Notes under the pieces: model-generated
Told to the model about the DNA's origin: nothing
Databases searched by the model: none
What the model saw: only the letters and a program-made list of their open reading frames with translations
IMG/VR virus record: IMGVR_UViG_3300009508_000009
Direction: 5' to 3' (one strand)
Source of the DNA: a virus
Length of the DNA: 6,595 nt
Shown: positions 4,210-4,364 of the stretch, in pieces
Layout: every line of letters starts with the position of its first letter
Position numbering within the stretch: position 1 is the stretch's first letter
Program-made: the position numbers and the translations under genes

Positions 4210-4245
4210 GCGCACGCGTCAGGGCGATTCAGAGACGCGTGGCGC
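4210..4245. other. Hairpin of 8+3 bp with a one-base bulge (GCGCACGCGTC / GACGCGTgGCGC), 13-nt loop
   Basis: 4210-4220 pairs with 4234-4245, with G4242 bulged. The ACGCGT palindrome is present in both arms. The 3' arm overlaps the outer stem of the 4241-4364 structure. Confidence 0.45.
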
Positions 4246-4364
4246 ATCGCATAATAGCGGATTACGTGTAAATAGATCGGCCCGCGTCCCGATTTTCGGG
4301 CCGATCAACTCGGCTTTTAGCCGCCTTCGGTAACTTAATCCGGCACCTCATTATGCGAAGCGTC
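4241..4364. promoter_or_regulatory. Long imperfect inverted repeat carrying dif-like XerC half-sites: candidate folded attP, or alternatively a packaging-signal hairpin
   Basis: Outer stem 4241-4255 / 4350-4364 has 9 contiguous bp (TCGCATAAT / ATTATGCGA), an A.A mismatch, then 4 more pairs. Inner stem 4258-4270 / 4331-4342 has 7 bp, a mismatch, 2 bp, a bulge and 2 bp. The internal loop is asymmetric (2 vs 7 nt). The apical part holds hairpins at 4275-4306 and 4311-4323. The top strand 4246-4273, ATCGCATAAT-AGCGGA-TTACGTGTAAAT, is 28 nt and resembles proteobacterial dif (E. coli GGTGCGCATAA-TGTATA-TTATGTTAAAT, quoted from memory). Confidence 0.4.
4275..4306 (-). terminator. Perfect 10-bp hairpin (GATCGGCCCG / CGGGCCGATC, 12-nt loop); possible terminator of the long minus-strand operon
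   Basis: Lies about 45 nt downstream of the last minus-strand stop (4351). On the minus strand it is followed by TATTTACACG, which is only moderately T-rich. Confidence 0.35.

Follow-up and report, generated by a model that had tools for sequence, protein, structure and literature searches.

The 6595-nucleotide (nt) stretch of DNA analyzed here, IMGVR_UViG_3300009508_000009 (the window), is the circularly permuted genome of a filamentous phage (inovirus) of ~6470 nt (~6.47 kb), with positions 1-125 recurring at 6471-6595. Its genes run on the minus strand throughout, save one small divergent gene on the plus strand. Inoviruses in general package their coding strand. Since the replication initiator (Rep) is encoded on the minus strand, the coding, hence packaged, strand should be the minus strand of the window. 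The last gene of the operon, open reading frame (ORF) 78, ends inside an inverted repeat at 4241-4364, the subject of this study. We consider it very probable that this repeat is a CTX-type folded phage attachment site (attP), through which a temperate inovirus lacking an integrase uses XerC and XerD of its host to integrate at dif. An earlier inspection of the letters alone (the sequence-only reading) had remarked on the missing integrase, and the ORF list together with Pfam and PHROG scans agrees: no recombinase gene was detected by these means, and only the Rep, Zot and pIII ORFs are long enough.

The plus strand at 4246-4273 reads ATCGCATAAT AGCGGA TTACGTGTAAAT and 4351-4359 reads TTATGCGAA, both as described in the sequence-only reading. 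The outer inverted repeat comprises 13 nt (4243-4255 / 4350-4362), is 92% complementary with a perfect core of 9 base pairs (bp), and its arms are 94 nt apart. A second stem, 4258-4267 / 4333-4342, is 90% complementary. The 9-nt core TCGCATAAT occurs once per strand compared with 0.04 expected occurrences, and two or more matches arose in only 1 of 200 shuffled sequences. Aligned in the canonical register of 11-nt XerC and XerD arms around a central region, each half displays a XerC arm, a center and a XerD-like arm, so both halves are complete dif-like sites. The plus-strand site (4244-4272) has a 7-nt center and the minus-strand site (4361-4328) a 12-nt center (Table 1). The sequence-only reading had described 4351-4359 as an inverted XerC half-site; the inverted copy is there, but it is part of a full dif-like site with an extended center rather than a mere half. 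Its arm also encodes the final codons and the stop (F-A-stop) of ORF78, and the ORF list confirms that the structure spans this stop codon (4351-4353).

Folding of 4200-4380 as DNA gave a forked structure on both strands, with -40.8 kcal/mol and a z-score of -4.66 for the plus strand and -41.0 kcal/mol and a z-score of -3.93 for the minus strand. This stability was matched by 0 of 200 shuffles, and over all DNA folds of the site z ranged from -3.9 to -5.2. The 9-bp perfect stem, the imperfect second stem and the apex branching into two hairpins, all put forward from inspection of the letters, were borne out by the repeat search and these folds. The larger apex hairpin has a perfect 10-bp stem (4275-4284 / 4297-4306) and a 12-nt loop. 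Within the stem, the last 4 nt of the 12-nt center (CGGA) pair with 4258-4261. No XerD-like arm is found 6-8 nt from the minus-strand XerC arm (GCCGGATTAAG); the nearest, if the site is read as a duplex, is 12 nt away.

Integrated copies locate the crossover. In L019, a 103-kb metagenome contig, a prophage occupies 4130-10602 and both of its ends map to window positions 4350-4359. Its right junction (attR) reads GCTTCGCATAA TATATA TTATGTTAAAT, that is, the phage XerC arm, a 6-nt center and a perfect consensus XerD arm, and by this sequence is a regenerated canonical dif. The left junction (attL) consists of the host XerC arm AAGTTCGCATAA followed by the phage sequence TGAGGTGCCGGATTAAG, which contains the 12-nt center and the remaining hairpin. 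To the right of the prophage the contig continues as ordinary chromosomal sequence that includes zigA and cyoABCE. L019 shows one prophage copy (assembly may collapse repeats). The ENA contig L005 encodes an identical Rep; its first 378 nt are non-phage and enter the hairpin at the same base as in L019. A different phage with 65% Zot identity, L001, is also a prophage, with the attR GGCTTCGCATAA TATATA TTATGTTAAAT and its own hairpin at attL. The partner site of L001 is a near-canonical duplex dif-like site (6-nt center, XerD arm 9/11), but the junction lies elsewhere. L001 carries a Pyrinomonadaceae label, which we disregarded as it is the bin assignment of a 7.5-kb contig and not trustworthy.

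Because the junctions in L019, L005 and L001 all fall at the XerC arm of the hairpin, 4241-4364 is an attP targeting dif; of this function itself we are close to certain. The CTXphi-style attP suggested in the sequence-only reading thereby stood, with prophage ends at the hairpin XerC arm, a regenerated dif and 12/7 geometry, while its single-stranded DNA (ssDNA) part is a likely one. That reading had also anticipated dif-adjacent copies with a junction at 4255-4261. The copies are indeed at dif; the junction is instead at 4350-4359, which is what the CTX model predicts because the coding, hence packaged, strand is the minus strand. The point of XerC cleavage and exchange would be the 3' end of TTCGCATAAT, between 4351 and 4350 on the minus strand. 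The rebuilt bacterial site (attB) is a typical proteobacterial dif, comparable to that of Hahella (AGTGCGCATAATATATATTATGTTAAAT). The phage centers start with TG in the crossover site and TA in the partner site, compared with TATATA in the host.

From the observed fold, dif-like anatomy, exact junctions and regenerated dif, and from the conservation and covariation of the fold described below, we propose the following route. On the packaged (minus) strand, the attP1-like (4361-4328) and attP2-like (4244-4272) sites would pair into the forked hairpin. Its stem would mimic a dif duplex, with a XerC-arm helix of 11-13 bp and a XerD-arm-like helix flanking a central bubble that is unpaired in part. 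XerC would cut the 5' arm at GCTTCGCATAA^T and exchange one strand with the top strand of host dif, and replication would turn the resulting pseudo-Holliday junction into a double-stranded prophage. The right side of the product would then carry a functional dif composed of the phage XerC arm, the host center and the host XerD arm, and the left side two non-functional dif-like sites. The substrate is probably ssDNA, XerC is probably the sole catalyst and the intermediate is presumably resolved by replication. The junction always falls at the long-center site, favoring a single strand as substrate. A further point in its favor is that the top strand cleaved by XerC is presented, in a hairpin, by the 5' arm alone, and this arm is the long-center site only if the coding strand folds.

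IMG/VR was scanned for pairs of inverted 9-nt cores separated by 65-95 nt, which gave at least 120 loci, nearly all on contigs of 5-10 kb, with at least 107 distinct hairpins; the selection required identical 9-nt XerC cores. All counts and pairing frequencies given for this set hold among the matches listed. A long (9-13 nt) combined with a short (5-8 nt) center was present in 103 of 107 distinct hairpins. Of the 87 hairpins for which this could be decided, 86 had the long-spacer site on the coding-dominant strand. Where a canonical dif was near a hairpin, it lay downstream on the long-spacer strand (14 cases) and never on the opposite strand. The asymmetry between long and short centers occurs in every cluster when the hairpins are grouped at 90, 80 and 70% identity (60, 35 and 11 clusters). 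The same layout is also built from different sequence, as in L001 with 10/6-nt centers (z -9.3) and in L009 and L024 with 12/7-nt centers (z -7.9). By the criteria used, no dif-like sites were found in remoter Zot relatives with 35-45% identity (L002-L004, L011-L018, L025-L027).

The two sites of a hairpin vary together. XerD-arm position 4 is T in both sites of 79 hairpins and C in both sites of 23, and positions 4, 7 and 11 pair at frequencies of 0.99, 0.79 and 0.83 versus 0.82, 0.52 and 0.42 in shuffled combinations. Positions free of the search constraint were assessed in a set of 94 hairpins with 1000 shuffles. Here, XerC-arm positions -2 to -4 pair at 0.73-0.81 (0.49-0.58 shuffled) and the 1-4 nt preceding the XerD arm at 0.62-0.98 (0.33-0.51 shuffled), in both cases with 0 of 1000 shuffles as high. 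Pairing is lost just outside the arms and beside the XerC cleavage side, and the fifth and sixth nt before the XerD-like arm are unpaired; the loss beside the cleavage side outlines the bubble. RNAalifold analysis of the subfamily to which the window's hairpin belongs retained the entire fork, in which both partners have changed in 7 of 35 pairs, and both apex hairpins are preserved by compensatory changes. In the apex loop at 4285-4296 (alignment A1 columns 66-73), a GAAAAT/GACAAT motif is kept across the subfamily while the stem varies; this motif may be a protein contact.

Some loci carry more than one copy of these parts. In L009 (~6226-6245 and ~6423-6442), and likewise in L024, the XerC arm GCGTTTCGCATAAT is duplicated 197 nt apart. 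The first copy ends an ORF78 homolog and the second starts the hairpin, with an ORF of ~57 amino acids (aa) between them, and this looks like sequence captured across the junction of tandem elements. Pairs of hairpins ~7.1-7.2 kb apart are present in L133 (1299/8366), L041 (2955/10079) and L144 (3801/11020). The two hairpins of L133 differ in sequence, suggesting an array of two different CTX-type phages; those of L041 and L144 may be tandem copies or assembly concatemers. A canonical dif nearer to the hairpin than a phage length was observed in L032, L040, L071 and L090 (2.0-2.3 kb after it) and in L052 (1.0 kb), which may be satellite-sized elements with a CTX-type site.

The closest functional counterpart is CTXphi. 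In published work, two inverted sites ~90 nt apart in its (+) strand pair into a forked hairpin of ~150 nt, with a 12-nt center in attP1, described as unsuited to a duplex reaction, and a 5-7-nt center in attP2; by the definition of the CTX type, neither site is a proper duplex substrate. Only XerC catalyzes, integration leaves one new dif and two dead sites, and the compatibility rule for CTX-type sites requires attP and dif to agree in the bases beside the XerC arm. Phages of the CTX type integrate irreversibly and produce their virions from tandem arrays. The CTXphi record, included as a positive control, has attP1 on the coding strand between ctxB and the divergent rstR, and when folded with the same parameters adopts the same topology as the window. 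Both phages thus share two inverted dif-like sites ~90 nt apart with 12-nt and 7-nt centers, and a forked hairpin made of XerC-arm stem, bubble, XerD-arm stem and two-hairpin apex. In both, the long-spacer site belongs to the coding strand and separates the last operon gene from a divergent regulator; in the window, the divergent gene at 3678-3941 occupies the position of rstR. Crossover at the XerC arm, a dif regenerated on one side, two dead sites on the other and the absence of an integrase are likewise common to them. In contrast to CTXphi, the window's arm contains CGCATAA instead of CGTATTA, the central region of its host dif is TATATA, its hairpin is shorter (~122 versus ~150 nt) and its XerD-like arms are weaker. 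The stop codon of its last gene falls within the XerC arm, its Rep is of the G2P/Phage_CRI family instead of RstA, it lacks toxin genes and its host is not a Vibrio. The mechanism of CTXphi was established experimentally, while that of the window is read from sequence.

YpfPhi of Yersinia pestis and CUS-1 of E. coli K1 are filamentous prophages for which an inverted pair of XerC/XerD binding sites has been reported, whose insertion rebuilds an intact dif at the prophage 3' end and for which CTXphi-like integration has been proposed. Like the phage of the window they are non-Vibrio inoviruses with such a site pair; unlike it they are 7-8.7 kb in size and carry other accessory genes. This likeness is taken from descriptions. 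VGJphi-type phages (VGJphi, fs1, VEJ, f237 and the Xanthomonas phages Cf1c, phiLf and XacF1) have a single duplex dif-like site with a 7-bp center and are excisable, and the Vibrio members encode the activator XafV beside attP. They are distant Zot relatives that share host XerCD, the dif target, XerC-side exchange and the lack of an integrase, whereas the crossover site of the window has a 12-nt center and yields a dif-like duplex only together with its inverted partner. The XerC and XerD arms ~7 bp apart at the crossover point that define the VGJ type are not seen in the window. TLC-type phages have a center identical to dif, a degenerate XerD arm, XerD-first exchange and the activator XafT beside attP; the window falls outside this type, its center being TGAGGT... 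compared with TATATA in its host. The ORFs beside its attP match no Pfam or NCBIfam family. Integron attC sites also act as a folded single strand, with exchange limited to that one strand and an intermediate that is resolved by replication, but they are recognized by a dedicated integron integrase that reads extrahelical bases, and involve neither dif nor XerCD. Overall, the inverted dif-like pair, the 12/7 centers, the forked hairpin, the junction at dif with a regenerated dif and the lack of a recombinase place the window with the CTX type.

A dif-targeting attP could also work as a duplex. XerCD might act on double-stranded 4328-4361 of the replicative form in the manner of VGJphi, leaving 4244-4272 as an accessory or regulatory XerCD site. 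The junctions fit any strand exchange at the XerC arm, the VGJ-type phages are distantly related to the window through Zot and the short-spacer site has the 7-nt center typical of their sites. However, the crossover was found at the site with the 12-nt center, of the kind called unsuited to a duplex reaction in the CTXphi literature, and the better duplex site is never the junction, as evidenced by L001 and by the one-sided orientation of nearby dif sites (14 versus 0). Moreover, the two sites covary to stay complementary, including spacer and outer-arm bases whose agreement a duplex reaction would not require, and the long-spacer site keeps almost without exception to the coding strand. We therefore regard duplex integration as unlikely. 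Several points nevertheless weigh against the folded CTX-type attP. Taken alone, the junctions would also fit a duplex reaction, and the identity of the packaged strand is an assumption carried over from inoviruses in general. Each XerD-like arm is weak (7/11), one A-G mismatch lies in that stem, and homology between phage and host centers amounts to only 1-2 nt beside the XerC arm. In the comparative set, the hairpins were chosen by identical 9-nt XerC cores, the coding strand was judged by ORF length bias and not from annotated genes, and the covariation counts are not independent events because the sequences are related. Finally, the dif sequence narrows the host only to a proteobacterial type.

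The sequence-only reading had offered three other roles for the hairpin, none of which fared well. It might serve, mainly or additionally, as an Ff-like packaging signal or as the terminator of the structural operon, with the dif-like motifs being secondary. A large imperfect hairpin on the packaged strand right after the last operon gene is in the position of the Ff packaging signal, a hairpin that is both necessary and enough for encapsidation, and its 10-bp apex stem is GC-rich. Yet no terminator-like site was found in 3600-4700, and the structure is wholly absent from relatives whose morphogenesis module is the same and whose Zot is 67-69% identical (L007, L008, L010, L020-L023). All of these instead have another hairpin just after zot, corresponding to 4554-4620 of the window, with an invariant core and covarying arms; because it is kept in all relatives, unlike 4241-4364, it is the better candidate for a packaging signal. 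In integrative Xanthomonas inoviruses, too, packaging signals are short hairpins of 20-26 nt near the origin and distinct from attP. Packaging or termination thus appears very unlikely as the role of 4241-4364. Hardly credible at all is a plus-strand origin or nick site for the G2P-family initiator. The hairpin does lie in a large intergenic region and, among the closest relatives, L001, L009 and L024 alone combine it with the Rep type of the window. But the 119 listed hairpin-bearing loci encode a G2P-family Rep in 34 cases, the unrelated RstA type of CTXphi in 18 and neither in 67, the conserved sequence consists of host dif arms with no Rep motif, and the junctions assign another function.

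The 4554-4620 hairpin, situated between zot and ORF78, has the invariant core CGGGAGGGCTCCCGC(G/T)TGCGGGAGGGACCCG with covarying flanks, also in relatives without dif-like sites, and its 3' arm holds the ribosome-binding site of ORF78. The likely true start of ORF78 is a TTG at 4548, as judged by homology with L009 and the L005 flank. ORF78 matched no Pfam or NCBIfam family even at E=10. We considered it as a general Xer cofactor and rejected this, given the lack of such a match and of any homolog in the 119 other listed hairpin loci. In the left flank of L005 (169-387), a 72-aa ORF that is 43% identical to ORF78 (E 2e-15) starts only 34 nt after a host gene with an EAL-type C-terminus and ends ...YRFA-stop in the host XerC arm of dif. 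A similar, N-terminally truncated ORF in the left flank of L019 (~3970-4139) ends ...YKFA-stop and gave no tblastn match to ORF78. The left-flank ORF either was left behind by the right end of an earlier related element or is a gene native to the dif neighborhood. ORF78, putatively a small membrane protein, ends in the XerC arm, and a homolog of it lying against dif in host contigs could point to a protein acting with the site rather than a mere remnant. In L005, which starts in host DNA, the right end of the phage runs into another copy of the hairpin at 6851-6969, representing either a tandem prophage or replicative-form reads merged by the assembler.

Table 1 Features of the attP region and genes of the window.
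Feature	Position	Strand	Remark
XerC-binding arm, crossover site (attP1-like), GCTTCGCATAA	4351-4361	-	Matches the host dif XerC arm at the L019, L005 and L001 junctions
Crossover block TTCGCATAAT	4350-4359	-	Common to attP, attL and attR; both L019 prophage ends
Extended 12-nt center, crossover site, TGAGGTGCCGGA	4339-4350	-	XerC-proximal part mostly unpaired in the fold
XerD-like arm, crossover site, TTAAGTTACCG	4328-4338	-	7/11 to TTATGTTAAAT
XerC-binding arm, inverted partner site (attP2-like), GCATCGCATAA	4244-4254	+	Pairs with 4351-4361
7-nt center, partner site, TAGCGGA	4255-4261	+	
XerD-like arm, partner site, TTACGTGTAAA	4262-4272	+	7/11; XerD-arm duplex with 4328-4338
Forked apex, two small hairpins	4273-4327		4275-4306 and ~4311-4323
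Host dif, ...TTCGCATAA^TATATA TTATGTTAAAT			...TTCGCATAATATATATTATGTTAAAT
Rep, replication initiator (G2P / Phage_CRI family)	2486-3619	-	Pfam/PHROG scans
ssDNA-binding protein, major coat protein, pVI-like protein		-	Pfam/PHROG scans, ORF list
pIII-like protein	Spans the ends of the linear stretch	-	
Zot	4645-5838	-	
ORF78, last operon gene, small protein with C-terminal hydrophobic helix	4351-4587	-	
Small divergent gene, phrog_5642	3678-3941	+	Between attP region and rep

A near-identity DNA search of catalogued phages returned zero matches, thus the phage is known only from metagenomes. Its nearest Zot proteins, with 30-46% identity, are those of a Pseudomonas phage, an uncultured phage and the Vibrio fs1/VGJ/VEJ group. 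Ten relatives have a Zot that is 65-69% identical, but a Rep of the window type (45-47%) is encoded only in L001, L009 and L024, which are the relatives having both this Rep and the hairpin. An argument that relatives with the same Rep lack the hairpin was dropped, as the window-type Rep is found only in relatives that have it. This distribution indicates mosaic genomes, in which a replication-lysogeny module and a morphogenesis module have separate histories. Within the pIII-like gene, window positions 395-731 have no nucleotide match in the L019 prophage, although the neighboring sequences are 92-96% and the zot side 99.8% identical, which suggests that the receptor-binding domain has been exchanged. 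Between rep and the divergent gene, 3635-3709 contains three direct repeats CATGCACAC(A/G), with an inverted repeat at 3634-3681, and is likely an operator or iteron region. Two adjoining perfect hairpins are located 3' of the divergent gene at 3951-3972 (TTACCCCGGA/TCCGGGGTAA) and 3974-3997 (GTGGGGGTG/CACCCCCAC), the second of which is conserved in L001. Both are candidates for an origin or a terminator.

This kind of mechanism is already known, experimentally from CTXphi and as a proposal from sequence for YpfPhi and CUS-1. The phage described here is a new, junction-verified example of the CTX type that is environmental and has a non-Vibrio host. A limited literature search, which is not proof of absence, found no survey of how frequent or uniform this design is among uncultivated inoviruses. 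We tentatively raise the possibility, doubtful as it still is, that the CTX-type folded attP, far from being a quirk of the phages of a few pathogens, is a portable lysogeny cassette widespread among uncultivated inoviruses. Consistent with this, there are more than 100 distinct versions among the matches listed, with a 9-13-nt center on the 5' arm of the packaged strand and a 5-8-nt center on the 3' arm. They occur with at least two unrelated Rep families, and putative arrays and mini-elements of 1-2 kb carry the same site. The target is a dif of the common proteobacterial type. For annotation, the hairpin and the regenerated dif allow the borders of such prophages to be set with single-base precision. 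The rules for folded sites were previously based mainly on mutagenesis of one phage; the ~100 natural variants provide a comparative dataset for these rules, covering spacer lengths, obligatory pairs and the position of the bubble.
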